Shown here piece by piece: positions 33,561-56,327 of a DNA stretch of 64,000 bases. How positions within the stretch are numbered: the stretch's first letter is position 1; the number at the start of each line of letters is the position of its first letter. The notes beneath the pieces were generated by a model, which saw nothing but the letters and a program-made list of their open reading frames with translations, did not search any database and had not been told where the DNA came from. The stretch is from an uncultured Desulfurococcaceae archaeon (GTDB lineage: Archaea > Thermoproteota > Thermoprotei_A > Sulfolobales > NBVN01), in assembly GCA_964399035.1 (NCBI GenBank), contig CAYNPH010000048.1:9685-73684 (forward strand), given 5' to 3'. The position numbers and the translations under genes are program-made.

Positions 33561-33608
33561 TCAGAACCCAGCCTCTAATCATCACTCATCGCTTTTAACC
33601 TTCATCAT
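33561..33608 (-). ncRNA. weak C/D box sRNA candidate
   Basis: On the minus strand: AUGAUGA, 12 nt, AUGA, GUGAUGA, 14 nt, CUGA. Box spacing is atypical because there is no D'-C' loop. Confidence 0.3.
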
Positions 33609-42917: not shown

Positions 42918-43181
42918 TTAGATTATGCCTAGGCGAGTTGCTACCTCGCTGGCCTTGTACTCCGGGGCGAGCCTGACGTAGGCTTTCTTTTCGCCCTTAG
43001 GAGTGATTAGCGTACGGACCTTTTCAACCTTAACGTCGAAGAGCTCCTCGACTGCCCTCTTAATGTCGTGTTTAGTAGCCTTTAAGTCAACTATGAAGGT
43101 TAAGGTATTGGCGGTCTCAATGTAACTCAAGGCCTTTTCAGTAGCTACAATCCTCTTTATTACAGTAGCTGGGTCCCTCAT
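42918..43181 (-). CDS. rpl23: ribosomal protein uL23
   Basis: TEKA...[21 protein letters not shown] pattern. It sits between uL4 and uL2. Confidence 0.92.
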
Positions 43182-43999
43182 GCTGAAATCACCTCAAACT
43201 TCTCCCTTATCTTTGATAAGGCTGAAAGGCTATACACGGTTAACCTACCTGGAACTCCACCGGGTGCGAGGTGTAGCACACTTAGGTTGTCGGCAGAGAT
43301 TACGTCTACACCAGGCAGGTTTCTGAAGGCCTTTACTGCAGGGACATCGTGGCTTGACACGACTATGAGCAAGGATTTGGGAACCTTATACCTCCTCCCC
43401 CTCATCTTACCTTTCCCGCTCCTCACCCGCTTCCTTGCTGCGGTCCTTTCAACATCTTCCCAAAGACCTAAGTTCTGCAGCACTTTCTTAGCCTCGGCAG
43501 TGCTGCCCACGCTCTCTAAGTCATCCACAACAACCACAGGTAAGGTTTCCACGCTGAACTTATGGCCTCTTGCCCTGACTAGCTCCTCTCTAGACGTTGC
43601 GGCAATGGCTGAAGCTATCGCTCTAATGCGTTCCTTCTTGTTTATCTCCTCATGAAGTACCTTCTCAACCCTTGGCGGATGGGCGAGTCTTCCGCCGCGA
43701 GTCATTGGAGCTATTACAGCGCGTCCGTTGTCGAGCCTCGGAACCCTTGCGACGCTGTGGTGGATACCCCATGACTCGCCAGCCCTCCTCATGCCGGCTA
43801 GGGGGTCTCTGCCCTTAGGCTGGAGCCTTGCTGTGTGGGCAGAATGGAATGCCCTTCTTATTAAGTCCTTCCTCACTGGTAGGCTAAAGACTGAGGGTAG
43901 CTCAACTTCCTTAACGGGGGTTCCATCTAGCCCGTAAACAGGTACTCGTTTCCCTGGGTCCTCCCTTAATCCGAGCCACACTATCCTGTACGCCATCAC
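43178..43999 (-). CDS. rpl4: ribosomal protein uL4
   Basis: Position and sequence pattern ([15 protein letters not shown]). Confidence 0.92.
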
Positions 44000-44011
44000 T
44001 TACCACCCAGC

Positions 44012-45064
44012 TCAGATTTTGCTTTCTAAGCTCACATAAATTACCTTAGGTGCTTGTTCGGGCACCCACTTGGGCGGCCTTACGGGCCATCGTAGTACGA
44101 GCGGACGTTTGGGCGTTCCTTGCACGCTTCCTCTAACAACGATGTAGTCGGTTCTTAGGAGGCCGTAGTGCGGGAATGCGCTCACTGGCGTGAACTCGCG
44201 TAGGATCCTCTCCGCTTCCTCGGCAGGCTTATCGCTTACTATTCTCATAGCTATGATCCTCTTATTGTATTCTGTCCTTCTGTGCATACCCATTTGGCCA
44301 GCCTGTGGTACGGGGCTAATCGCGCCAATGCCTGGGCTCCTAGCGCCTATTCTTCTTGATCCTTTCCTCTGTTTGTTCCATTTCGGTAGCTCCTTGACGC
44401 CGAACCTTTTCACTACACCCTGGAATCCTTTACCCTTAGTTACTCCTATTACGTCTATGAACTGTCCTTCACGAAACACGTCTGAAATCTTCAAGGGGTT
44501 TCCGAGAATGTTTAACGCGTATTGCACTTGATCATCTACGTTTCCTCCACCCACCTTAACCTCTACAATGTCGGGAACCTTCTTACTGAGGCCTCCCGTT
44601 AACCGTGGTTGTGATGCCAGAATTAAGGAAACCCTAGCGACGTAGTCCTTGTTATTCTCTAGCTTCTTACGTGCCTTCTCAACGCCCTCTTCATTCACCT
44701 TCAATGACTTTATTCTTCGCTTTATCTGTAGCTCCTCCGGGGGCTGTGCCCAGACCTCCGTAAGTGTCCGTAGCCCACCGACGGTTGCTTCATAGAATCT
44801 CGCCGCAACAGGGATCATTGGAGGCGTTTCAATTACGGTTACCGGAACGAATACCTCCTTTCCATACGTTGGTGTTCCAGGTCTATCATCAATCATTATT
44901 ATGTGGGTCATCCCAACCTTGTAACCTAAGAACCCCAGAGGTCTGGGCTCATCGAAGTCCACTTCTGGCCAAGTCTTTACTCTAGGCACAAACTTAGATG
45001 CCCTCTTCCTAGGCCTTACCCCTAGGCTACCCCTACGTGGCGCTGAGTGCTTCCGTCGTGCCAT
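44012..45064 (-). CDS. rpl3: ribosomal protein uL3
   Basis: PRRGSLGVRPRKRA N-terminus, GYKVGMTH and GKGFQGVVKR motifs. Confidence 0.95.
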   Translation of the reverse strand: MARRKHSAPRRGSLGVRPRKRASKFVPRVKTWPEVDFDEPRPLGFLGYKVGMTHIIMIDDRPGTPTYGKEVFVPVTVIETPPMIPVAARFYEATVGGLRTLTEVWAQPPEELQIKRRIKSLKVNEEGVEKARKKLENNKDYVARVSLILASQPRLTGGLSKKVPDIVEVKVGGGNVDDQVQYALNILGNPLKISDVFREGQFIDVIGVTKGKGFQGVVKRFGVKELPKWNKQRKGSRRIGARSPGIGAISPVPQAGQMGMHRRTEYNKRIIAMRIVSDKPAEEAERILREFTPVSAFPHYGLLRTDYIVVRGSVQGTPKRPLVLRWPVRPPKWVPEQAPKVIYVSLESKI

Positions 45065-45135
45065 ACCTCCACACCACTACCTCCAAGTGTCTGCTATCTG
45101 GCTTTAAATCCTTAGCTTATAACGCTTTTGAAGGT

Positions 45136-45192
45136 TGTGTCAGCCTATGTCCCTACATCACCCATCAGAACTCGGCAAATACATCATTCACT
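45136..45192 (-). ncRNA. C/D box sRNA
   Basis: On the minus strand: C AUGAUGU (45187-81), 12-nt guide AUUUGCCGAGUU, D' CUGA (45168-65), 3-nt loop, C' GUGAUGU (45161-55), 11-nt guide AGGGACAUAGG, D CUGA (45143-40). AT-rich TATA-like elements lie 20-35 nt upstream. Confidence 0.68.
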
Positions 45193-45246
45193 TTCACACT
45201 TACCTTAATAAGGCGGGTAATAAGCTATGAGAGGAGGTTGGTAAGA

Positions 45247-45363
45247 ATGGGAGGACGCCAGAGAACGACGCTCTTCATGGGTGTTGGCGGAATAAAGGAA
45301 GAGAAGAAGAAGGAGCAAGAAAAAGGTAGGCAGAAAGGTAAGGGTAAGAGAAAGAAAAGGTAA
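45247..45363 (+). CDS. candidate 38-aa Lys/Arg/Glu-rich small protein
   Basis: GAGGAGGT (45231-38) lies 8 nt before the ATG. The ORF MGGRQRTTLFMGVGGIKEEKKKEQEKGRQKGKGKRKKR is followed by the T-run TTTTGTTTTT. It is below the ORF-track cut-off when started at this ATG. Confidence 0.35.
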   Translation: MGGRQRTTLFMGVGGIKEEKKKEQEKGRQKGKGKRKKR

Positions 45364-45445
45364 ATGCACCATAGGTTTTGTTTTTATGTTATTAAGTTAG
45401 TAAATCGGCGAGGTATATTAGCAATAGTCTTGGAGTTGGGGTGAA

Positions 45446-46321
45446 TTGAAGGCTTTTGAGTGGCCTCCTCGGAAGCATCCGGTACATGTTGTGGTGGTCA
45501 TACCCGCATCCAACTTATCAATCCTACCCACACTTCGGGAGAAGACGGAATTCGCGGGTGAGCTCGGGCGTACCTTAGCTATATACAAGGTTAACGACGT
45601 CATAGTATACGATGACGAATTTGCTGAGGAAGGTGATGCTGACCTCCTGGCAACCTTGCTGAGCTACTTGCAGGTTCCACCATATCTCCGAAAAAGGATA
45701 GTCCCGATAACACCTGAGTTAAGGTACGCAGGGCTTCTGCATCCGCTTAACATTGTTACTCACAATCCCGCCAACAAAGCACCTACTCGTGGCGATCTCA
45801 GGGAAGGAGTTGTAGTAGTCTCATGGGGTGCGACAGCCAAGACATTTGTGGGGTCAAAGAACCTTTGCTTTACCGAATCATCTCGGGAACTCAAGCCGGG
45901 GGAAAGAATCTTAGTTAGGATCGAGCGTGCTAAGCCTATGAAGTGCCGTGAGGTAAGGCCGGAAGAAATAGAGGAGTATGTGGGTTACAGAGTGTTGAAG
46001 GCGGGAGACGACATAGTTGACGCGATAAGGTACTTCAACGGCGTAGTTGTTCTAACGTCTAAACACGGTGAAAGCTTTTCCAAGCAGGGATTAAGGAAAA
46101 CCCTGCTAAACGAGGCGTTGCGGAGCAAAGGATTGGTTCTGTTATTCGGTAATAGCAAGCTAGACTTTGATGAAATCCTCGGTAAAGAGAGGTTCGCAGC
46201 TCTTGAGCCAGTGTGGAGAGTGAACTTCATCCCGGGTCAAGGGGTACTCTCAGTGAGAACTGTTGAGGCTCTGCATGCAGTTTTAGCTCAGATAAATACA
46301 GAGCTATGGTCTAGGAAATAG
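45446..46321 (+). CDS. SPOUT-superfamily putative RNA methyltransferase (DUF171/COG2106 type)
   Basis: VVVIPASNLS..L.EKT...G.LGRTLAIYKVNDVIVY N-terminal pattern and C-terminal LLFGN...NFIPGQGVLSVRTVEAL. TTG start with TATA-like GTATATTA about 30 nt upstream. Confidence 0.7.
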   Translation: MKAFEWPPRKHPVHVVVVIPASNLSILPTLREKTEFAGELGRTLAIYKVNDVIVYDDEFAEEGDADLLATLLSYLQVPPYLRKRIVPITPELRYAGLLHPLNIVTHNPANKAPTRGDLREGVVVVSWGATAKTFVGSKNLCFTESSRELKPGERILVRIERAKPMKCREVRPEEIEEYVGYRVLKAGDDIVDAIRYFNGVVVLTSKHGESFSKQGLRKTLLNEALRSKGLVLLFGNSKLDFDEILGKERFAALEPVWRVNFIPGQGVLSVRTVEALHAVLAQINTELWSRK

Positions 46322-46381
46322 CCTTAAGCGTTGCGCAGGATAAGAGAGGAAAACTAATAAAGCTCGCAAAGTAAAGACGGG

Positions 46382-46867
46382 TTGGTGCGTAGAGTGGCGC
46401 TCGACATTGAGGTACCACCAGAGTGGAAGAAGTTCAGGTATAGGGGGAAGACCCTCGAGGAACTGCTGAATATGCCTATGGATCAGTTACTAGAGTTACT
46501 GCCTTCGAGGGCAAGGAGATCACTACTTAGGGAATCCTCCCCTGAGATACAGCAGAGAAGGATGGAGATGGGTATTAAGGAGTCTCCCAGACTAAAGTTG
46601 CTTAGGAAGGTCATGGAGGCTAGGGAACTACTAAAGCAGGGCAAGAAAGTCCGCATAAGGACACATGTTAGGGACATGGTGATACTGCCGGTAATGGTTG
46701 GACTCACAATTGAAGTGTATAATGGTAAGGAATTCATACCGGTGAGAATAACGCCCGAAATGATAGGGCATTACCTGGGAGAGTTCGCGCCAACAACTAG
46801 GATAGTGCAGCATGGAGAGCCAGGCCTCAAGGCAACGAGGTCAACACTGTTCGTCGCGATGAAGTAA
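46382..46867 (+). CDS. rps19: ribosomal protein uS19
   Basis: [23 protein letters not shown] and [22 protein letters not shown]. The exact start is uncertain (TTG 46382, GTG 46385 or GTG 46394). Confidence 0.92.
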
Positions 46868-46879
46868 GTAGTTCTTGCC

Positions 46880-47275
46880 TTAACCAATATATTTCTTCAG
46901 GCTTTTTACGAGCCTACTAACGTCCTTCTCGAGGAGGATTAAGCAAATTTCCTTGCCATTCTTTAGCCTTATTAGTACCTCCGATACGTTCCCGCTAATT
47001 TCGTCAGGAAATAGGTCAGCAATGTCTCTCCGTGTCCTCCTTAGGGGGTACTTACGGATGTTGAGGACATCACTTGCGCCGACCTCCAGTTCCGTGATAC
47101 CTTTACTTGATAGGATAGTGTGTAGCTCCCTTATTGAGAGTTGTCCCTTTATTTTAACAAGTCTGTTACTTATGTCTGGATAAACTATGATGCGTACCTT
47201 TCCTGGGGACGCCACAATCTTGCATTTATGAAAAAACCTGTCCCTACGCACATATGCTGGCTTAATTACTGGCAT
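46880..47275 (-). CDS. hypothetical protein co-oriented with rtcB
   Basis: 131-aa ORF beginning 5 nt after the rtcB stop. No family recognised, and it lacks archease-like features. Confidence 0.5.
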   Translation of the reverse strand: MPVIKPAYVRRDRFFHKCKIVASPGKVRIIVYPDISNRLVKIKGQLSIRELHTILSSKGITELEVGASDVLNIRKYPLRRTRRDIADLFPDEISGNVSEVLIRLKNGKEICLILLEKDVSRLVKSLKKYIG

Positions 47276-47280
47276 CGTGC

Positions 47281-48732
47281 TTAACCTTTGACAACCCCAA
47301 TTGGTCTGAGCCTAGCGACCAGCGCGGCTATTTTTACTTGGTGAGTTACCATCGCTACCTTATCTACGTCCTTGTACGCACCGGGTGCTTCCTCACTTAT
47401 TACTCTCCTAGTTGCTGCGTGGAGGTATATGCCCTGCTTAGCTAGACTGGAAGTGACTTCATGAGGTCTATACGTTCTTATCGCTGCGTGTCTCGACATC
47501 CACCTGCCAGCCCCATGTGCTGCTGAGTAGAACGTGCGTTTCCCTTCAGGCACTCCCACCATGACGTAACTAGCCGTCCCCATGGAGCCCGGTATCAGTA
47601 CTACCTGCCCTACTGACTTGTGGTCCTTCGGTATCTCTGGGTGACCAGGCGGGAACGCTCTTGTCGCCCCTTTCCTATGGACCACGAGCTTCATTCTCTT
47701 CCCGTTCACTTCGTGTTCCTCGAGCTTAGCGATGTTATGTGCCAGGTCGTATATTATTTTTAACCCTAGCTTGTCTGGGTCGGTGTGGAAGACCTTACCG
47801 AAGGACTCGCGGACCCAATGCGTTATTATTTGCCTGTTGGCAAAGGCGAAGTTTGCTGCTGCGCCCATGGCCTTGAAGTAGTCTTGCCCTTCCTTACTGT
47901 TGAAGGGGACTGAAGCAAGTTCCCTGTCTGGGGGCCTTATTCCGTACTTGCGCATTGCCCTCTCCATAATTATTAAGTAGTCGCTAGCTACCTGGTGTCC
48001 AAGACCCCTTGACCCTGTGTGAACCATTACAGTGACCTGCCCTTCCTCATAAATCCCCAGCACCTTAGCTACGGCGGGGTTGTAGATCTTATCCACTATC
48101 TGAATTTCCAGGAAATGATTCCCAGCACCTAACGTGCCTAGCTGAGGAGCGCCCCTCCTCTTGGCGGTGTTACTTACTTTGCTTGCGTCAGCCCAAGGTA
48201 TCCGGCCTTGGGCCTCTATATGCTCGGTGTCGTCGGCCCAGCCAAAACCATTTCTTACAGCCCACTGGGCCCCCTCATTAAGGACTTCATCGAGCTCACC
48301 GAAGCTTAACCTAAGTTTCCCTGTACTCCCAACGCCAGATGGCACGTTCCTGAAAATTGTGTCAACGAGTTCCTTCAGCCTTGTCCTTATATCATCGACC
48401 CTTAACTCAGTTGAAAGTAGCCTAACGCCGCAGTTTATGTCATAACCAACGCCACCCGGTGAAATCACACCCTCGTCAGCTACCATGGCAGCGACGCCGC
48501 CTATCGGGAAGCCATAGCCCTGGTGACCATCGGGCATCACGTAAGTTGCTAAGACGACGCCGTCGAGACACGCTATGTTGGCTGCTTGAACTAGCGTTAA
48601 GTCGGTCTTCATTTTGCTTAGGAGGTACTCATCAGCAAATATTATTGCTGGTACCTTCATACACGGCTTGGTTCCTTTCGGTATTTCCCACGTGTACTTA
48701 TCTACCCTTCGCAGTGGGATGTTATGACTCAT
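47281..48732 (-). CDS. rtcB: RNA-splicing ligase RtcB
   Basis: MPDGHQGYGFPIGGVAA, GGVGYDINCGVRL and HGAGR motifs. ATG 48732 matches the N-termini of known RtcB proteins. The ORF is open to 48759. Confidence 0.95.
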   Translation of the reverse strand: MSHNIPLRRVDKYTWEIPKGTKPCMKVPAIIFADEYLLSKMKTDLTLVQAANIACLDGVVLATYVMPDGHQGYGFPIGGVAAMVADEGVISPGGVGYDINCGVRLLSTELRVDDIRTRLKELVDTIFRNVPSGVGSTGKLRLSFGELDEVLNEGAQWAVRNGFGWADDTEHIEAQGRIPWADASKVSNTAKRRGAPQLGTLGAGNHFLEIQIVDKIYNPAVAKVLGIYEEGQVTVMVHTGSRGLGHQVASDYLIIMERAMRKYGIRPPDRELASVPFNSKEGQDYFKAMGAAANFAFANRQIITHWVRESFGKVFHTDPDKLGLKIIYDLAHNIAKLEEHEVNGKRMKLVVHRKGATRAFPPGHPEIPKDHKSVGQVVLIPGSMGTASYVMVGVPEGKRTFYSAAHGAGRWMSRHAAIRTYRPHEVTSSLAKQGIYLHAATRRVISEEAPGAYKDVDKVAMVTHQVKIAALVARLRPIGVVKG

Positions 48733-48861
48733 AACTACACACCTACGCTTAACTACCATTAAGCGGTTTTAAGAATTCCATGGTTTCTGCACGCGTGGGT
48801 AAAACTTATGAACTTATAAGCCCCACCTAAAAAGGTCTTAGGCAGTGGGGAAGGTGGGACG

Positions 48862-49347
48862 ATGCCAGTATGGCACTACTCCGTGAAGGTGAAGAAGGAG
48901 GATGAAGATCGCGTAGCTAAGGCTATGGTTTGGGATGCACCGGTCTCACTTAAGGAGACCTACGAGATATTCAAAATAATCCGGGGCATGAAGCTGAAGG
49001 AAGCCGAGAAATTGCTTGAGGACGTTATAGCGCTTAGAACCCCTATTCCTTATGTTAGATATAAGCTACAGGTTGCCCATAAGCGGGGACTGCCCCAGAG
49101 ATTCCCGCGGTGGAAGACACCAATAGGTAGGTACCCTGTCAAAGCCGCTAAGGCGGTTCTCAAACTCCTGAAGAACGTTGAGAACAATGCGGAGCAGAAG
49201 CAACTGGATATCGATAGGCTGGTCATAATTCATGCAGCTGTCCATAAGGGTAGGTACCTTAAGAGGTGGATACCTCGTGCCTTCGGCCGTGCAACTCCGA
49301 AGGTTGGGACCATGGTTAACATGGAGGTAATAGTTAAGGAGGTGTGA
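48862..49347 (+). CDS. rpl22: ribosomal protein uL22
   Basis: Sequence pattern and position upstream of uS3. Confidence 0.92.
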   Translation: MPVWHYSVKVKKEDEDRVAKAMVWDAPVSLKETYEIFKIIRGMKLKEAEKLLEDVIALRTPIPYVRYKLQVAHKRGLPQRFPRWKTPIGRYPVKAAKAVLKLLKNVENNAEQKQLDIDRLVIIHAAVHKGRYLKRWIPRAFGRATPKVGTMVNMEVIVKEV

Positions 49348-49979
49348 TGCGAATGGTCGACATAAAGTCTCACTTCATAGGCTTGAATATTCTCCGAATA
49401 AAGATTGACGAGTACCTAGCAAAGAACTTCATGAGGGCAGGGTACTCCAGGGTGGAGCTGATTAAGACACCCCTTGGAACCAGGGTAATTATATACGCTG
49501 ACAGACCAGCCCTAATAATAGGTAGGAGAGGTCAAACCATAAGGAGATTAACGGAAATCCTAGAAAAGTACTTCAAGCTAGAGAACCCGCAGATAACAGT
49601 GACCCAGGTTGAGAACCCAGACCTTGACGCCAGGATCGTAGCAACCCGTCTCGCGTTAGCCATAGAGAGGGGTTATCACTTCAGGAGGGCGGCATTCGTT
49701 GCCCTTAGGAGGGTTCTTGGTGCGGGCGCTGTTGGTGTGGAAATCGTAATCAGCGGTAAGTTAACCTCAGAGAGGGCTAGGTACGAGAAAATACGTGCCG
49801 GCAAGGTCTACAAGACCGGGCATCACATCGAACACCTCACTGATAGGGCAGTCATACACTTACTACGGAAACCAGGTATCTATGGTATAGAGGTCTTAAT
49901 AGTGAAGCCAGGTGAACCGGACGACATAGTTAGGATTAAGGAACCAGGTGAGGAGAGCGTAGGTGGTGAAGCGGCATGA
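49347..49979 (+). CDS. rps3: ribosomal protein uS3
   Basis: KH-domain pattern (RVELIKTPLGTRVIIYADRPALIIGRRG). The TGATG overlaps the uL22 stop. Confidence 0.95.
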   Translation: MRMVDIKSHFIGLNILRIKIDEYLAKNFMRAGYSRVELIKTPLGTRVIIYADRPALIIGRRGQTIRRLTEILEKYFKLENPQITVTQVENPDLDARIVATRLALAIERGYHFRRAAFVALRRVLGAGAVGVEIVISGKLTSERARYEKIRAGKVYKTGHHIEHLTDRAVIHLLRKPGIYGIEVLIVKPGEPDDIVRIKEPGEESVGGEAA

Positions 49980-50203
49980 CTTTGAAGCCTGATGAGATAA
50001 GGAAGATGAGCCGGGAGGAAAGGATGCGTAAGTTAAGGGAGCTTAGGGCGGAGCTGATAAAGTTAAGGACCCAAGCATACCTCGGGACATTAACAAATGT
50101 TGGGAGAATAAAGCAGGTTCGTAAGGACATTGCAAGGATACTTACGATAATGCGGGAAGAGGAACTAAAATCAACTCAAGGCAAGAAGGGTAGTAAGTCT
50201 TGA
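49976..50203 (+). CDS. rpl29: ribosomal protein uL29
   Basis: LRELRAELIKLR pattern, 75 aa, conserved position. Confidence 0.9.
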   Translation: MTLKPDEIRKMSREERMRKLRELRAELIKLRTQAYLGTLTNVGRIKQVRKDIARILTIMREEELKSTQGKKGSKS

Positions 50204-50484
50204 GGAGAAGTAAGAAGAACATCGTGTACCATGAATTAATAGGGTTGGAAGTAATGGTGAAGGACCATACGAGCAAATCCTTCGTCGGTATGAAGGGGAG
50301 AATTATCGACGAAACTATGAACACGTTAGTGATCATGGACAGCAAGGGTAACAGAAAAGTCGTGCCTAAACTGGGCGGGGTATTCCTTTTTAAACTCGGT
50401 GATCATCACACTGTAGAGGTCAAGGGTGACCGGATAATGGGTAGGCCTGAAGACAGGTTGAAAAGGTACGGGGGTGTGATGTGA
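50200..50484 (+). CDS. rnp1: RNase P protein component 1 (Rpp29/Pop4)
   Basis: HELIGLEVMV...GMKGRIIDETMNTLVI pattern. It occupies the canonical archaeal slot between uL29 and uS17. Confidence 0.8.
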   Translation: MRRSKKNIVYHELIGLEVMVKDHTSKSFVGMKGRIIDETMNTLVIMDSKGNRKVVPKLGGVFLFKLGDHHTVEVKGDRIMGRPEDRLKRYGGVM

Positions 50485-50485
50485 T

Positions 50486-50839
50486 ATGTCAAGCAGAGTT
50501 AGGAACATAGGAATAAAGTATGAAGGGTTAAATCCGCCGGAGAAGGAATGTGACGATCCTCTATGCCCATGGCACGGGCACCTAAAGGTGCGTGGCGGGT
50601 TACTTGTTGGTAAGGTACTTAAGGCTAGGATGAGGCGAACTGTCGTTATTGAGAGGGAGTACCTCGTTTACATAAAGAAGTACATGAGGTATGAACGAAG
50701 GAGGTCACGTATTCACGCTCACCTCCCACCATGTATTGACGCTAAACCTGGAGACGTTGTGTTAATCGGGGAGACACGCCCACTAGCAAAGTCGGTGTCT
50801 TGGGTAGTGCTAGGTGTGCTTAAGAGAGGGGTGAGCTAA
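50486..50839 (+). CDS. rps17: ribosomal protein uS17
   Basis: DPLCPWHG...G.V...M..TVVIEREY pattern and position. Confidence 0.92.
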   Translation: MSSRVRNIGIKYEGLNPPEKECDDPLCPWHGHLKVRGGLLVGKVLKARMRRTVVIEREYLVYIKKYMRYERRRSRIHAHLPPCIDAKPGDVVLIGETRPLAKSVSWVVLGVLKRGVS

Positions 50840-50840
50840 G

Positions 50841-51260
50841 ATGCCAGAGAAGAAGGGTGGTGCTGCATATAGTAGGGTTCGCAGGGTTCCTGGGATAGTT
50901 GTCGGTACAAGACTCAAAGTGACTGACAATAGCGGTGCCAAGGAAGCCATGGTAATAGGTGTTCCAGGTCTCAAGACCAGGTTAAGGAGATTACCCTTTG
51001 CCACAGTGGGTGACATGGTTGTAGTAACGATAAAGAAGGGGAATGCCGATCTAGTTGGTCAGGTAATGAACGCCATAATAGTAAGGCAGAAGAAACCCTT
51101 CAGAAGGCCTAATGGTGTGTGGGTTGCTTTCGAGGATAATGCATGCGTCATAGTATCGCCAGAGGGGGCACCCAAAGGCACCGAGATAAGGGGACCGATA
51201 GCTAAGGAAGCCGCTGAACGTTGGGCTAGGCTATCAACGATAGCGTCAATGGTTGTTTGA
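50841..51260 (+). CDS. rpl14: ribosomal protein uL14
   Basis: [12 protein letters not shown] and [14 protein letters not shown] motifs. Confidence 0.96.
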
Positions 51261-51273
51261 GGTGGGGATAGCG

Positions 51274-51747
51274 ATGGCACCAAAATCTAAGAAACCTGGG
51301 AAACAGCGTCTTGCCCAAATCAATGCTCCTCACCACATTAGAAGGAAATTCATGACCGCGAAGTTAGTGCGTGAGCTTAGGGAGAAACTAGGTATTAAGA
51401 GGCTGCCTGTTCGTAAAGGCGATGTCGTACGCGTGGTAAGGGGAGAGTGGACAGGGCATGAAGGCAAGGTAGTGGCGGTTGACTACAAGAAAATAGCTTT
51501 GCACATTGATGGAGTAACGATAAAGAAGGCTGACGGCACGCCCGTTTATTACCCAATACACCCCTCGAACGTAATGATAGTTAAGCTCGACCTTAGCGAT
51601 AAGTTCAGGAAAAAGATCATCGAGAGGCGTAAAGGAAGGCCTGAAGCAGTGGTTGAGGAAGAGGTGACTGAGGAGAAACCTGAAGAGGAGGCTAGGGAAG
51701 GCCTCGAGGTTAAAAAGGAGGAAAGCACACCTCAAGGAGGTGAGTGA
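51274..51747 (+). CDS. rpl24: ribosomal protein uL24
   Basis: KOW motif [23 protein letters not shown] 51274 is preceded by GAGGTGGGG. Confidence 0.9.
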
Positions 51748-51758
51748 GAGTGGCGCGG

Positions 51759-52508
51759 ATGGGCTCAAGGAGGCACCTGAAGAGGCTCGCTGCACCTGAG
51801 TTTTGGCCTATTCTTAGGAAGGAGCGCACCTGGACTGTTAAGCCGTCAGCGGGTCCCCACCCAATAAGCCGCTCATTACCGTTGCTTATTATTGTGCGTG
51901 ATATCCTAGGCTTGGCCGACACGGCTAGAGAGGCGAGGAGAATCATTGCTGAAGGACACATCAAGGTCGACGGCAGGGTGAGGAGGAACTACAAGTATCC
52001 TGTAGGCATAATGGATGTTGTGGAAATTGTCGACACCCAAGAGTACTTCAGGATGATTCCAGTTCCTGTGAAGGTAATGACTTTAATACCAATACCCAAG
52101 GAGGAAGCCTCATTTAAGATCTGCAGGATAGAGAACAAGACCACGGTTAAGGGAGGTCACATTCAACTCAACCTACACGACGGTAGAAACGTGTTAATCA
52201 GGGTCAGCGACCCCACGAATCCTGAGGAGGACACGTACAGAACCATGAGTTCTGTCAAAATAGGCTTACCGGGCAGTGAGCTGCTTGAGTATTACCCGTT
52301 AGAGGAGGGAGTAACAGTAATAGTGATTGGCGGTAGGAACGTTGGCAGGGTAGCTAAGTTCCTAAGCGTTTCCGAAGGAATGAGGCACTACAGAAAGCAG
52401 GTTGCTCTAGAGGACTTCAGGGGTAACAAATTCTACACGACCCTTGACAAGATCATGGTTATAGGGCGTGAAAAGCCTGAAATAACGCTGCCGGAGGGAG
52501 CGGTATGA
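51759..52508 (+). CDS. rps4e: ribosomal protein eS4
   Basis: MGSRRHLKRLAAPEFWPI N-terminus is typical of S4e. Confidence 0.93.
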   Translation: MGSRRHLKRLAAPEFWPILRKERTWTVKPSAGPHPISRSLPLLIIVRDILGLADTAREARRIIAEGHIKVDGRVRRNYKYPVGIMDVVEIVDTQEYFRMIPVPVKVMTLIPIPKEEASFKICRIENKTTVKGGHIQLNLHDGRNVLIRVSDPTNPEEDTYRTMSSVKIGLPGSELLEYYPLEEGVTVIVIGGRNVGRVAKFLSVSEGMRHYRKQVALEDFRGNKFYTTLDKIMVIGREKPEITLPEGAV

Positions 52509-53077
52509 GCCCGAAGAGAACAGTAACGTTCACAGAGGATGAGATCGAAGCAGTGGTTGAGAAGTGGAGTAAGAACCCGATGCTTAAGCCTAGGATAGCT
52601 AAGGTAGTCGTCAACATCGGTGTGGGTGAGTCCGGAGAGCGCCTCCAGAAGGCTAAGCAAGTGTTAAAGGAGTTGACTGGGCAGGAACCATCCATAAGGA
52701 GAGCTAAAAGAACCATCAAGGAATTCGGCATCCGTAAGAGGGAGCCGATAGCCGTAGTTGTTACCCTGCGTGGCGAGAAGGCATTATCATTCCTTAACAG
52801 GGCTTTAGAGGCTATAGGACGCAGGGTTAAGGCGTCAAGCTTCGACGACTTCGGGAACTTCTCATTCGGGATAAGCGAGCACATAATACTTCCTGGCGTA
52901 AAGTACGATCCCAACGTAGGTGTCTTCGGGATGGACATATCGGTGAAGCTCGAGCGCCCAGGGTATAGGGTGATGAGGCGGAGAGTTAAGAGGTCTAAGA
53001 TACCGCGTAGGCACCGGGTTTCCAAGATAGAAGCGATAGCTTTCTTCATAAAGGAACTGGGAGTTAGGGTGATGTAG
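52505..53077 (+). CDS. rpl5: ribosomal protein uL5
   Basis: [21 protein letters not shown] pattern and position. Confidence 0.95.
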
Positions 53078-53078
53078 C

Positions 53079-53243
53079 ATGGGTAAGTTCAGGAAGCCTA
53101 TAAAGAGGAAGTATGGGAGAGGCGTACAGGTCTGCAGGAGATGCGGTAGTAGGGATGCGGTCATACAAAAGTACGGGCTATACCTATGCAGGCAGTGCTT
53201 CAGGGAACTCGCAGGTGAGTTAGGCTTCAAGAAGTATAGCTAG
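53079..53243 (+). CDS. rps14: ribosomal protein uS14 (zinc-binding type, 54 aa)
   Basis: Absent from the ORF track because it is under 60 aa. Translation is [54 protein letters not shown]. It occupies the canonical slot between uL5 and uS8. Confidence 0.9.
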
Positions 53244-53254
53244 GGGTGTAAGCC

Positions 53255-53656
53255 ATGGTGACGATGGATCCATTAGCAAACGCGCTTTCCACGATAATGA
53301 ATAATGAAATGCGCGGACACAAGGAGGCTGTGATAACACCAGCATCAAAGCTCATAGCCATGGTACTTAGAGTTATGCAGAAATACGGGTACATAGGTGA
53401 GTTCGAGCACATCGATGACGGCAGATGGGGTAAAATAAAGGTACAATTACTTGGCAGGATAAATAAGACTGGCGTTATAAAGCCCAGAGTGCCCGTGAAG
53501 TATAAGGAATTACGAGAGATGCCGCACTGGCTAAGGAAGTACCTACCCTCTAGGGACATAGGAATATTAATTCTGTCAACACCTGAGGGAGTGATATCAC
53601 ACAGGGAAGCCCTCGAAAGGCGAATCGGGGGTGTGCTCCTAGCGTACGTATACTGA
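53255..53656 (+). CDS. rps8: ribosomal protein uS8
   Basis: [16 protein letters not shown]-terminus and position. Confidence 0.95.
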
Positions 53657-53679
53657 AGTCATTCCAGAGGTGATAGCTG

Positions 53680-54228
53680 ATGGTGAAGGAGGTAAGGGTG
53701 CGGGACGAGATTGAGGTTCCCGAGGGCGTCGAGGTAAGTATTGAGGGGAAGACCGTACGGGTGAAAGGACCTAAGGGAGAGATTGTCAGGGACTTCAGCC
53801 ATGCGAGGAAAGTACGTATCTACTTAGAGGATAATAAAGTGGTTGTGGAGACCTTCTTTGCGCGGAGGAAAGAAAAAGCCGTAGTTTACTCCATAGGTGC
53901 GCACATAAGGAACATGATAACGGGCGTAACCAAGGGATATAGGTATTGGTTAAAGATCATTTACTCACACTTCCCGATATCGGTGAAGGTGCAGGGAGAT
54001 AAGGTTTTAATAGAGAATTTCCTTGGTGAACGTGCTCCTAGGGTAGCCAAGATAGTCGGTAACGTTAAGGTGAAAGTGCAGAAGAACGACGTAATAGTTG
54101 AGGGCGTTAACATAGAGGAGGTCGGCCAGACAGCAGCAAACATAGAACAAGCAACAAAGATTCGGGGCTTCGACAGGAGGGTATTCGTTGATGGAATCTA
54201 CATATACAAGAAGGAATTGATGGAGTAA
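53680..54228 (+). CDS. rpl6: ribosomal protein uL6
   Basis: Tandem-repeat fold pattern (VRVKGPKGE...) and position. Confidence 0.95.
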
Positions 54229-54238
54229 GGGGTGAGTA

Positions 54239-54625
54239 ATGATGGCCGCACTAGATAGGGAGAGGATAAAGCGCATGATCCAGAAAAAGAAGAAAATAGT
54301 GTTCCTGCGCAATAAGTGGTGGAAGTTCGAGAAGTTCAAGAACGATCCCAAGTGGCGCAGGCCTAAGGGCAAGGACAACCCAATGAGGTTAAAGTTGAAG
54401 GGCCACCCACCAGTGGTTGGTGTGGGGTATAGGACTCCGCGAGTAATACGTGGGCTTCATCCCCAGGGACTAAAGCCTGTGGTGGTGCACTCGGTAAGGG
54501 AGCTTGAGGGCTTAGACCCGTCAAGTGTTATTGTGTACATAGGCGCCACTGTCGGCGCACGGAAGAGGGTAGAGTTAATTAATAAGGCTAAGGAAAGAGG
54601 TTTCCTCATAGCTAATGCAGGGTGA
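54239..54625 (+). CDS. rpl32e: ribosomal protein eL32
   Basis: WRRPKGKDNPMR and GYRTPRVIRGLHP motifs. Confidence 0.9.
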   Translation: MMAALDRERIKRMIQKKKKIVFLRNKWWKFEKFKNDPKWRRPKGKDNPMRLKLKGHPPVVGVGYRTPRVIRGLHPQGLKPVVVHSVRELEGLDPSSVIVYIGATVGARKRVELINKAKERGFLIANAG

Positions 54626-54632
54626 TGGGAAG

Positions 54633-55085
54633 ATGACGGACCTAAGCATGCAGAAGAGGCTTGCGGCTGAAGTGCTTGGAGTAGGTGTGTCAAGAATAAG
54701 GATCGATCCCGAGAGGATAGAGGATGTTGAATCAGCGCTACGTAGGGAGGACATACGACGCCTAATAAAGGATGGAGCTATCTATGCGCTTCCAGCACGC
54801 CGTAATTCACGCGGTAGGTGGAAGGAAAGGCACCGCAAAAGGAAGAAGGGACATAGGAGGGGGCCAGGCAAGAGAAAGGGAGCGCGCGGTGCTAGAGTGG
54901 ACGAGAAGCGCCTGTGGATGTACACGATCAGGAAGATTAGAAGGTACCTCAAGTGGCTTCGCGATAACGGTGTTATCGATAGGAAGACGTACAGGAAGCT
55001 ATACCTGCTGGCGAAAGGCGGGACCTTCAGGAGCTTATCAGACTTAAAACGCCACTTAACGGATATGGGTATTCAGGTGAGGTAA
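54633..55085 (+). CDS. rpl19e: ribosomal protein eL19
   Basis: LSMQKRLAAEVLGVGVSRIRIDP N-terminus. The ORF opens at 54615. Confidence 0.92.
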   Translation: MTDLSMQKRLAAEVLGVGVSRIRIDPERIEDVESALRREDIRRLIKDGAIYALPARRNSRGRWKERHRKRKKGHRRGPGKRKGARGARVDEKRLWMYTIRKIRRYLKWLRDNGVIDRKTYRKLYLLAKGGTFRSLSDLKRHLTDMGIQVR

Positions 55086-55086
55086 C

Positions 55087-55689
55087 GTGGCGAGAGGACC
55101 TAGGTATAAGGTGCCGAGACGCAGGCGGAGGGAGGGCAAAACCAACTACTACAAGAGGTACAGAATGATTAAGTCAGGACAGAAGATAAGGGCAGTTATC
55201 CGTAAGACTAACACCCAGATAATAGTGCAGATAATAGAGTTCGCACCTAACGGTGACAAAACCCTGGTCGGGGTCACCAGCAAAAAGCTTAGGCGGTTCG
55301 GCTGGAAAGGTAGCTTGAAGAGTACGCCAGCCGCGTACTTAACGGGCTTAATTGCAGGATTAAAGGCCAAGAAAGCAGGCATAGAGTACGCGATACCCGA
55401 CATAGGTCTTCACCCTTCAGTCCGTGGCTCACGGATATATGCCGCAATCAAGGGTCTAAGGGACGCTGGTGTTGAGGTGCCTGCTTCCGAGGAAGTGCTC
55501 CCAAGCGAAGAAAGGATACAAGGTAAGCACATAGCGGAATATGCGAGAAAACTGGCTGAGGAGAACCCGGAAGAGTTCCAGAGAAGGTTCTCTCAACTAC
55601 TCTCTAGGGGCTTAGACCCACGCGAATTGCCTGACCACTTCCTCAAAATACGTGATATCATAATAGGTTACTTCCAGGCAGGTGATTAA
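55087..55689 (+). CDS. rpl18: ribosomal protein uL18
   Basis: [20 protein letters not shown]-terminal pattern. GTG start. Confidence 0.93.
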
Positions 55690-55691
55690 GA

Positions 55692-56327
55692 ATGTCGCGC
55701 GCGATTACCTCGCTTGAGGAATGGGTTCCCAGAACTCGTTTAGGCTGGATGGTTAAGGAGGGCAAGATTAGTAGCATCAAGGAAATCTTCGATATGAACC
55801 TAGTCATACAGGAGCCAGAGATAGTTGATTACCTACTCCCCGACTTACAACATGAGGTCGTAGACGTTAATATCGTCCAGAAACAGACCGACGCAGGCGA
55901 GATGACGCGCTTCCGCGTACTTGTGGTAGTAGGTAACTTCGACGGATACGTAGGTATAGGGCTCGGTAAGGCGAGGCAGGTAAGGCAGGCAATAAGCAAG
56001 GCAATAAGGAATGCGAAACTAAACATAATACCTGTGAGGCGAGGGTGTGGTAGCTGGGCATGCTCGTGCACGGAACCACACAGCGTGCCCTTCACAGTGA
56101 TGGGTAAGTGTGGAAGCGTTAGGATTAAGTTAATACCGGCACCCAAAGGCACAGGTTTAGTCGCAGGGGACGCAGCTAAGGTCGTGCTAAGGTACGCAGG
56201 AATAAAGGACGTTTGGACATGGAGCCGAGGTGAAACAAGAACAACCATAAACTTCGTCGGCGCTGTTTACGACGCCCTCAAGAACACCTATAAGTTTGTC
56301 ACAGTATACGACTGGACTAGGAGGTGA
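55692..56327 (+). CDS. rps5: ribosomal protein uS5
   Basis: [17 protein letters not shown] and [12 protein letters not shown] motifs. Confidence 0.95.

Follow-up and report, generated by a model that had tools for sequence, protein, structure and literature searches.

The minus strand of the gap between the genes for ribosomal protein uL3 and a SPOUT-type putative RNA methyltransferase carries a short run of motifs that resembles an archaeal box C/D sRNA. Is this run an sRNA gene, and if so, does it act on rRNA or on the ribosomal protein genes just downstream? We analyzed the motifs, their occurrence in the window (the whole 64-kb stretch of DNA that was analyzed), the equivalent loci of relatives, and the complementarity of the two guides to rRNA. 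Based on these results, we consider it very probable that the locus is a functional dual-guide archaeal box C/D sRNA gene of ~55-60 nt, one that would guide 2'-O-methylation of 23S rRNA. The host, represented by a contig from an ENA metagenome assembly, is an uncultured archaeon of the Thermoprotei, related to MAGs of Zestosphaera, Desulfurococcales, and Sulfolobales.

Anatomy of the sRNA

The minus strand contains every part of a dual-guide box C/D sRNA, in order, over a length of 55 nt with both stem strands included (45137-45191). The 5' stem GUG (45191-45189) pairs with the CAC of the 3' stem (45139-45137) and is followed by the bulged A of the k-turn (45188) and by box C, AUGAUGU (45187-45181). 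The D' guide, AUUUGCCGAGUU, is 12 nt long (45180-45169), is the complement of AACUCGGCAAAU in 23S rRNA, and adjoins box D', CUGA (45168-45165). The spacer UGG (45164-45162), the loop of the internal k-loop, separates box D' from box C', GUGAUGU (45161-45155). The 11-nt D guide, AGGGACAUAGG (45154-45144), has candidate targets only and runs into box D, CUGA (45143-45140). This reading is identical to the layout given in the original prediction (C AUGAUGU, 12 nt, D' CUGA, 3 nt, C' GUGAUGU, 11 nt, D CUGA).

The size of the RNA and the form of its boxes are those of archaeal C/D sRNAs. The guide spacers of 12 nt and 11 nt and the total of 55 nt, including the 3-bp stem, fall within the sizes accepted for such RNAs. 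Inspection of C/D and C'/D' as k-turns showed that G3A4 and U5 are present and that G6 faces C1 of CUGA. The D' and C' boxes are well formed, 3 nt apart, and their cores are invariant in orthologues. The seventh position of box C is U, where the consensus RUGAUGA has A; the U form is found in most members of the family described below, and both ATGATGT and ATGATGA are common as box C among the at least 61 distinct members.

The motif does not appear to occur by chance. A regular expression for the whole dual-guide layout matched the 64-kb window once, at this site, and matched none of 200 dinucleotide-preserving shuffles. At gathering thresholds, a tRNA was the sole Rfam match in the whole window, which thus showed neither an rRNA nor a C/D sRNA family. 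In a permissive scan of the whole window, the sRNA was the top non-tRNA match, to snoPyro_CD (RF00095; 45137-45191, minus strand) with 30.8 bits against a gathering score of 45 (E=1.8e-4 on a 600-nt region and 0.019 on the whole window), and, with matching coordinates and strand, to sR11 (RF01150) with 26.6 bits against a gathering score of 39. The sRNA aligns end to end with both models over boxes C, D', C', and D, but it is below their gathering scores and so is not a member by Rfam's criterion. The scores are below threshold because the archaeal C/D families in Rfam are narrow and based on Thermococcales, and a sub-threshold score therefore says nothing against identity as a C/D sRNA. The consensus D' guide of sR11, gUUUGCCcagUUAC, resembles that of the sRNA but is 2 nt longer and differs in sequence, and by the N+5 rule it would presumably point two nucleotides away from the site of the sRNA. 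RNA folding gave the sRNA a self-structure no better than that of shuffled controls (z=0.20), as expected of a guide RNA for which proteins provide the scaffold.

The D' guide and its predicted 23S rRNA target

The D' guide is perfectly complementary to a single site in archaeal 23S rRNA. We scanned genome contigs with the predicted target and a downstream anchor. The matches listed were mostly bacterial 23S genes, and among them were two archaeal 23S genes confirmed with Rfam (L026 and L028, from a Thermofilaceae MAG and Archaeon HR02); rRNA was absent from the other archaeal loci fetched. Each had one 12/12 Watson-Crick site for the D' guide, in the context GGGAACUCGGCAAAUUGGCCCCGUAACUUCGGGAGAAGGGGUGCC; the chance that a random 12-mer would match in ~4.6 kb of rRNA is ~3e-4. 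The complementarity was read in the 23S rRNA of related archaea rather than the host's own, in a segment that is very conserved, and in these rRNAs the guide has at least 10 nt of complementarity with the N+5 nucleotide inside the duplex. In a published alignment, GGGAACUCGGCAAAUU is the sequence of the segment in each of the 23S rRNAs of S. acidocaldarius, P. calidifontis, T. tenax, and I. hospitalis (PMC4644070). The original proposal that this guide is complementary to a conserved LSU rRNA segment was confirmed by a perfect, unique 12-nt match in the proposed context, GGGAACUCGGCAAAUUGGCCCCGUAACUUCGGGAGAAGG.

The nucleotide predicted to be methylated is the C of AACU[C]GG. Counting five nucleotides upstream from box D' (U1 U2 G3 A4 G5) leads to this C, in agreement with the position originally proposed, and the C aligns with A1670 of E. 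coli 23S rRNA. The E. coli numbering was taken from one rrl gene, in which 23S starts at locus position 376 and the aligned block is at 2001. Helix 61 of domain IV has been named as a methylation hotspot (Dennis et al. 2015, PMC4644070).

The target sequence is not confined to archaea. The segment AACUCGGCAAAU followed by GUAACUUCGG was also present in many bacterial 23S rRNAs among the matches listed (loci L007-L126), from Actinomycetota, Proteobacteria, Acidobacteriota, and Bacteroidota. Bacteria do not have the C/D machinery. The predominance of bacterial 23S genes among the matches listed itself reflects the strong conservation of the target segment, which extends well past the organisms in which it is methylated.

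Published sRNAs with the same guide

Earlier catalogues already list this pair of guide and target for other Crenarchaeota and for Nanoarchaeum, and the target is therefore not new. Four RNA-seq-derived sRNAs assigned to this 23S segment carry the guide: P. calidifontis sR38 (AUUUGCCGAGUG adjoining CUGA, D position), T. tenax sR151 (UUUUGCCGAGUG adjoining CUGA, D position), I. hospitalis sR169 (GUUUGCCGAGUG adjoining UUGA, D' position), and N. equitans sR21 (GUUUGCCGAUUA adjoining CUGA, D' position), the last of which fits its own 23S variant (PMC4644070). The published 23S alignment marks P38, N21, T51, and I169 in the target segment (Dennis et al. 2015, BMC Genomics 16:632, PMC4644070). Of the four, sR151, sR38, and sR169 were seen as abundant small RNAs (PMC4644070).

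The sRNA described here is, by its guide and its site, a further member of this known family of guides. Like the sRNA, all four published RNAs are compact dual-guide archaeal C/D sRNAs, and in all four the N+5 rule leads to the same AACU[C]GG nucleotide. Three of them (sR38, sR151, and sR169) have the guide core UUUGCCGAGU exactly as in the sRNA, one nucleotide before the D or D' box, and N. equitans sR21 has a one-base variant, UUUGCCGAUU, that fits its own rRNA, AAAUCGGCAAAU. The guide is at the D' position in sR169 and sR21, as in the sRNA, and at the D position in sR38 and sR151, unlike the sRNA. The partner guides of all four differ from AGGGACAUAGG. The last guide nucleotide is G in the published sRNAs, a mismatch at position 1, and U in the sRNA (the junction reads UUUGCCGAGU-U-CUGA here and UUUGCCGAGU-G-CUGA or -UUGA there, within what defines the guide family), and the duplex of the sRNA therefore reaches 12 bp. 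The C1670-equivalent had already been predicted as a C/D target in several Crenarchaeota and in Nanoarchaeum; the new part is the sRNA gene itself.

Eukaryotic box C/D snoRNAs share the box C/D k-turn and the N+5 rule with archaeal sRNAs, and the eukaryotic machinery has equivalents of fibrillarin, Nop5 (Nop56/58), and L7Ae (Snu13). The archaeal form differs from eukaryotic snoRNAs in its length of ~55 nt, its well conserved C'/D' boxes, and its symmetric 12-nt guide spacing, and it differs from the intron-encoded ones in being a free-standing gene with a TATA promoter.

Conservation upstream of uL3 and in a wider family

The boxes and the D' guide core are conserved at the equivalent place in relatives. 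The regions upstream of uL3 were fetched through the uL3 protein, a route that makes no use of the sRNA sequence. Among named relatives, the nearest in uL3 were MAGs labelled Zestosphaera, Desulfurococcales, Sulfolobales, and Ignisphaera. In an alignment of five relatives with 95-74% uL3 identity (alignment A1), the four boxes (in box C', its UGAUG) and the guide core were invariant, while the D guide, the D'-C' spacer, and the flanks all varied. A Zestosphaera MAG and a Desulfurococcales MAG, both with 69% uL3 identity, also have the sRNA at the equivalent place, and the guide core and four boxes are kept in 7/7 uL3-retrieved orthologues (95-69% uL3 identity). At 58% uL3 identity, a C/D sRNA is present at the equivalent place in a Sulfolobales MAG, and the D guide of this sRNA, AUCUCCCGAAGU, matches the adjacent 23S sequence ACUUCGGGAGA. 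In an Ignisphaera MAG (56%), an sRNA encoded on the other strand, 349 nt away from uL3, has the guide at its D position. No such sRNA was found within 600 nt of uL3 on a Stetteria-like contig.

The terminal stem covaries. The pairing is GUG/CAC here, CGGG/CCCG in L005, GCG/CGU in L006, and UUG/CAA in L247. We tested the stem by permutation because the register of the helix differs by one nucleotide among members. Among the 66 distinct members listed, pairing extended over 2.41 consecutive positions, compared to 1.40±0.14 (maximum 1.83) in 1000 permutations. The helix is short and is absent in some family members. The D'-C' spacer ranges from 3 to 14 nt among relatives and is variable in sequence. 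The view that this is the compact archaeal dual-guide architecture of about 55 nt holds: the spacing fits, and orthologous loci keep both the boxes and the covarying stem.

The guide is found in a large family. A metagenome scan for box C/C', the D' guide, and CUGA gave at least 119 stretches, and at least 81 of these have the full D'-type dual architecture (61 distinct sequences). Many other listed stretches have the guide at the D position, and a few are coincidences in bacterial coding sequences. In at least about 24 stretches (58-95% uL3 identity), the sRNA precedes uL3 by 84-245 nt, both are encoded on one strand, and the SPOUT gene is divergent. The guide to the C1670-equivalent is thus very widespread in thermophilic archaea, with many partner guides and at either the D or the D' position, that is, with guide shuffling. 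Partner guides of listed members matched the Thermofilaceae 23S rRNA in 40 of 68 cases, compared to a mean of 24 and a maximum of 32 for shuffled guides, and the sites fell into classes at +19 to +22, -195, and +270 nt from the C1670-equivalent.

In three members located upstream of uL3 (L141, L160, and L198), the D guide, AUUUGCCGAAGA, closely resembles the D' guide of the same RNA, AUUUGCCGAGUG. The resemblance suggests duplication of a guide inside the gene followed by divergence.

Gene context and putative promoters

The sRNA is located between an operon for ribosomal proteins and two divergent genes. The uL3 gene (PF00297; 44012-45064, minus strand) is the first of the uL3-uL4-uL23-uL2 operon and begins 75 nt downstream of box D. 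On the other side, the gene for the SPOUT-type putative RNA methyltransferase (PF02598; 45446-46321) is on the plus strand, and a 38-amino-acid ORF, MGGRQRTTLFMGVGGIKEEKKKEQEKGRQKGKGKRKKR (45247-45363, plus strand), lies between it and the sRNA, divergent from the latter. This small ORF is called by gene callers in most orthologous loci, and its variable alignment columns are third codon positions (GGC/GGT/GGA and ACG/ACA/ACC/ACT); it therefore looks like a real gene. It had no match in Pfam, NCBIfam, or PDB and falls in a cluster of nine unnamed proteins.

The surrounding ribosomal protein cluster (~43000-56000) is split, with uL3-uL4-uL23-uL2 on one strand and uS19, uL22, uS3, and onward on the other. 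The SPOUT methyltransferase gene lies between uS19 and uL3, and genes for an RtcB RNA ligase and a 131-amino-acid ORF lie between uS19 and uL22.

The sRNA appears to have its own promoter. TATA-like elements had been noted at 45203-45224, upstream and on the same strand, and two are present there: CTTATTA (45218-45224), centred 34 nt upstream of box C, and TTATTAA (45205-45211), centred 21 nt upstream. Among the 66 distinct members listed, A/T content rises to a sharp peak of 0.86 at 29 nt before box C, compared to ~0.55 in the background. The -29 position is where an archaeal TATA box is expected for a transcript that starts just before box C. CTTATTA is likely the sRNA promoter, possibly shared with the divergent small ORF; its centre at -34 is ~5 nt farther from box C than the family mode. 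TTATTAA is conserved in alignment A1. It seems too close to box C to be used by the sRNA and might instead belong to the plus-strand small ORF; in L005, an 8-nt insertion places its equivalent at about -28 from box C. A third element, TTTAAA (45103-45108, minus strand), is between the sRNA and the uL3 start codon, ~40 nt upstream of the ATG at 45064, and is likely the uL3 operon's own promoter; in alignment A1, the closer orthologues keep GGATTTAAAGCC at this element, and L006 has one substitution in it.

Archaeal C/D sRNA genes are found in variable contexts, and only ~20% have independent promoters (PMC7994747). Judged from the loci compared, the arrangement of SPOUT gene, sRNA, and uL3 is unusually stable for an archaeal C/D sRNA gene, and the place upstream of uL3 is kept over a wide evolutionary range, unlike the variable contexts of most such sRNAs.

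The D guide

The D guide has candidate targets in rRNA, none of them established. No site with two or fewer mismatches to AGGGACAUAGG was found in the Thermofilaceae 23S rRNA, the 3' half of its 16S rRNA, or the 5' part of the HR02 23S rRNA. One candidate is UA[U/C]GUCCCG in domain I of 23S rRNA (fuller context CUAAAUA[U/C]GUCCCGAG); S. acidocaldarius has U at the U/C position, which gives 8 contiguous pairs including N+5. The other is UACGUCCCU in 16S rRNA (context GAAUACGUCCCUGC), with which the Zestosphaera guide forms 9 pairs. Chance alone would give each guide ~0.3 matches of 8 nt, and neither site is therefore established. Host sequences that would give at least 9 contiguous pairs including N+5 are, for example, CUAAAUAUGUCCC in 23S and GAAUAUGUCCCU in 16S rRNA. 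It is possible that the D guide is an orphan, as are 28% of Pyrobaculum guides (PMC6009581), or that it pairs with an rRNA variant specific to the lineage. The Zestosphaera orthologue carries a related D guide, AGGGACGUAGAGA, and the core GGGAC(A/G)UA is therefore older than the immediate clade of the window.

Three other proposals for the D guide were rejected. A target ~30 nt downstream of the D' target had been suggested by GGGGUGCCUAUCGUGG in S. acidocaldarius and by the double labelling of I. hospitalis sR169 in the S. acidocaldarius row of the alignment, but the pattern GTAACTTCGGGAGAAGG N{1,30} YYTATGTCCCT had no match in JGI metagenomes, leaving the nearby target unsupported. Assignment of the whole GGGAC class of partner guides to one rRNA site also failed: members fit three different GUCCC sites, near nt 498 and near nt 1202 of 23S rRNA and near E. 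coli position 1378 of 16S rRNA. Last, the complement of the D-guide 11-mer is over-represented in the window (8 sites with one or no mismatch, compared to 1.45 expected), with exact complements at 53552-53562 and 54847-54857, antisense to uS8 and eL19, and five one-mismatch sites. The uS8 and eL19 mRNAs carry the guide-sense string (codons AGG-GAC-AUA and GGA-CAU-AGG) and were rejected as targets because guide-sense mRNAs cannot pair with the sRNA. The excess is most likely due to codon bias.

Probable function of the sRNA and alternative explanations

We favor a function in 2'-O-methylation of 23S rRNA. A TATA-type promoter of its own would drive transcription of the sRNA, close to the start of the uL3 operon and co-directional with it. 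L7Ae would bind at two places, the k-turn of the terminal C/D and the k-loop of the internal C'/D', and two fibrillarin subunits would join through a Nop5 dimer. The D' guide AUUUGCCGAGUU would pair with 5'-AACUCGGCAAAU-3' in domain IV of 23S rRNA, just upstream of the CCGUAACUUCGGGAGAAGG hairpin, and fibrillarin would methylate the C that faces the guide nucleotide five positions before box D' (AACU[C]GG). The binding of these proteins to C/D RNAs, the N+5 rule, and the methylation that results are established for C/D RNPs, and it is from this knowledge that we expect them at the predicted C.

Could the motifs be a chance constellation, or the remains of a decayed, non-functional sRNA gene? 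The boxes are short, the Rfam scores are below gathering thresholds, and the D guide is without a confirmed target. However, none of the 200 shuffles yielded the motif, the rRNA match is a perfect 12-mer, the terminal stem covaries, and the four boxes and the D' guide are invariant while the neighboring non-coding sequence diverges. The conservation data effectively refute this explanation, which we regard as extremely improbable. The element might instead act mainly in cis, for example as an L7Ae-bound k-turn that modulates transcription or translation of uL3-uL4-uL23-uL2, or might be cut out of a uL3 leader transcript made by read-through. In favor of this, the uL3 start codon follows after only 75 nt on the shared strand, the linkage is kept across 58-95% uL3 identity, L7Ae is reported to bind k-turns in mRNA (PMC5539422), and many C/D sRNAs of archaea arise by processing of longer precursors (PMC7994747). 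A fixed cis role is disfavored by the variable distance to uL3 (84-245 nt) and by Ignisphaera-like loci in which the sRNA is on the opposite strand and ~350 nt away. In addition, the family shows an A/T peak of its own 29 nt before box C, a separate conserved TTTAAA lies between the sRNA and the uL3 ATG, the most strongly constrained part is a guide with a perfect match to 23S rRNA, and the same guide occurs in abundant small RNAs of T. tenax, P. calidifontis, and I. hospitalis. We consider a mainly cis-acting element very unlikely.

Equally unlikely, in our view, is that the RNA is chiefly a folding chaperone for rRNA that masks or tethers domain IV of 23S rRNA, perhaps using the D guide as a bridge to another site, and that methylation is of minor importance or does not occur. 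Chaperone and bridging roles have been proposed for dual guides (PMC7994747), and partner guides of the listed members often match near the C1670-equivalent, at the excess over shuffled guides given above. Such a role is compatible with methylation and does not exclude it; guides competent for methylation need just such spacing (12 nt and 11 nt) and such a perfect duplex around N+5, and no second target was found for the D guide AGGGACAUAGG in the rRNAs searched. A combined proposal, to which we assign a low probability, albeit slightly higher than that of either of these two, is that the deep linkage of the sRNA to the SPOUT gene, the small ORF, and the uL3 promoter region reflects a functional module and not hitch-hiking, with the sRNA and the uL3 operon co-regulated through a shared or bidirectional promoter and its guides bridging domain IV of 23S rRNA (C1670) to a distant site, for example UA[U/C]GUCCCG in domain I, as an assembly chaperone.

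With 23S methylation as the preferred function, the locus provides a correctly delimited C/D sRNA gene with a confident predicted 23S target. Such genes are unannotated in this lineage and are missed at Rfam thresholds, and the finding has little importance beyond annotation.

A second candidate C/D sRNA in the window

The window has a second plausible dual-guide C/D sRNA, at 33561-33608 on the minus strand, in a gap between ORFs. No clean match to this candidate was found in the two archaeal rRNA loci searched, and the Rfam model sR1 scored it at 20.9 bits (E=0.45). It has a GG/CC stem and reads AUGAUGA AGGUUAAAAGCG.. GUGAUGA UUAGAGGCUGGGUU CUGA.
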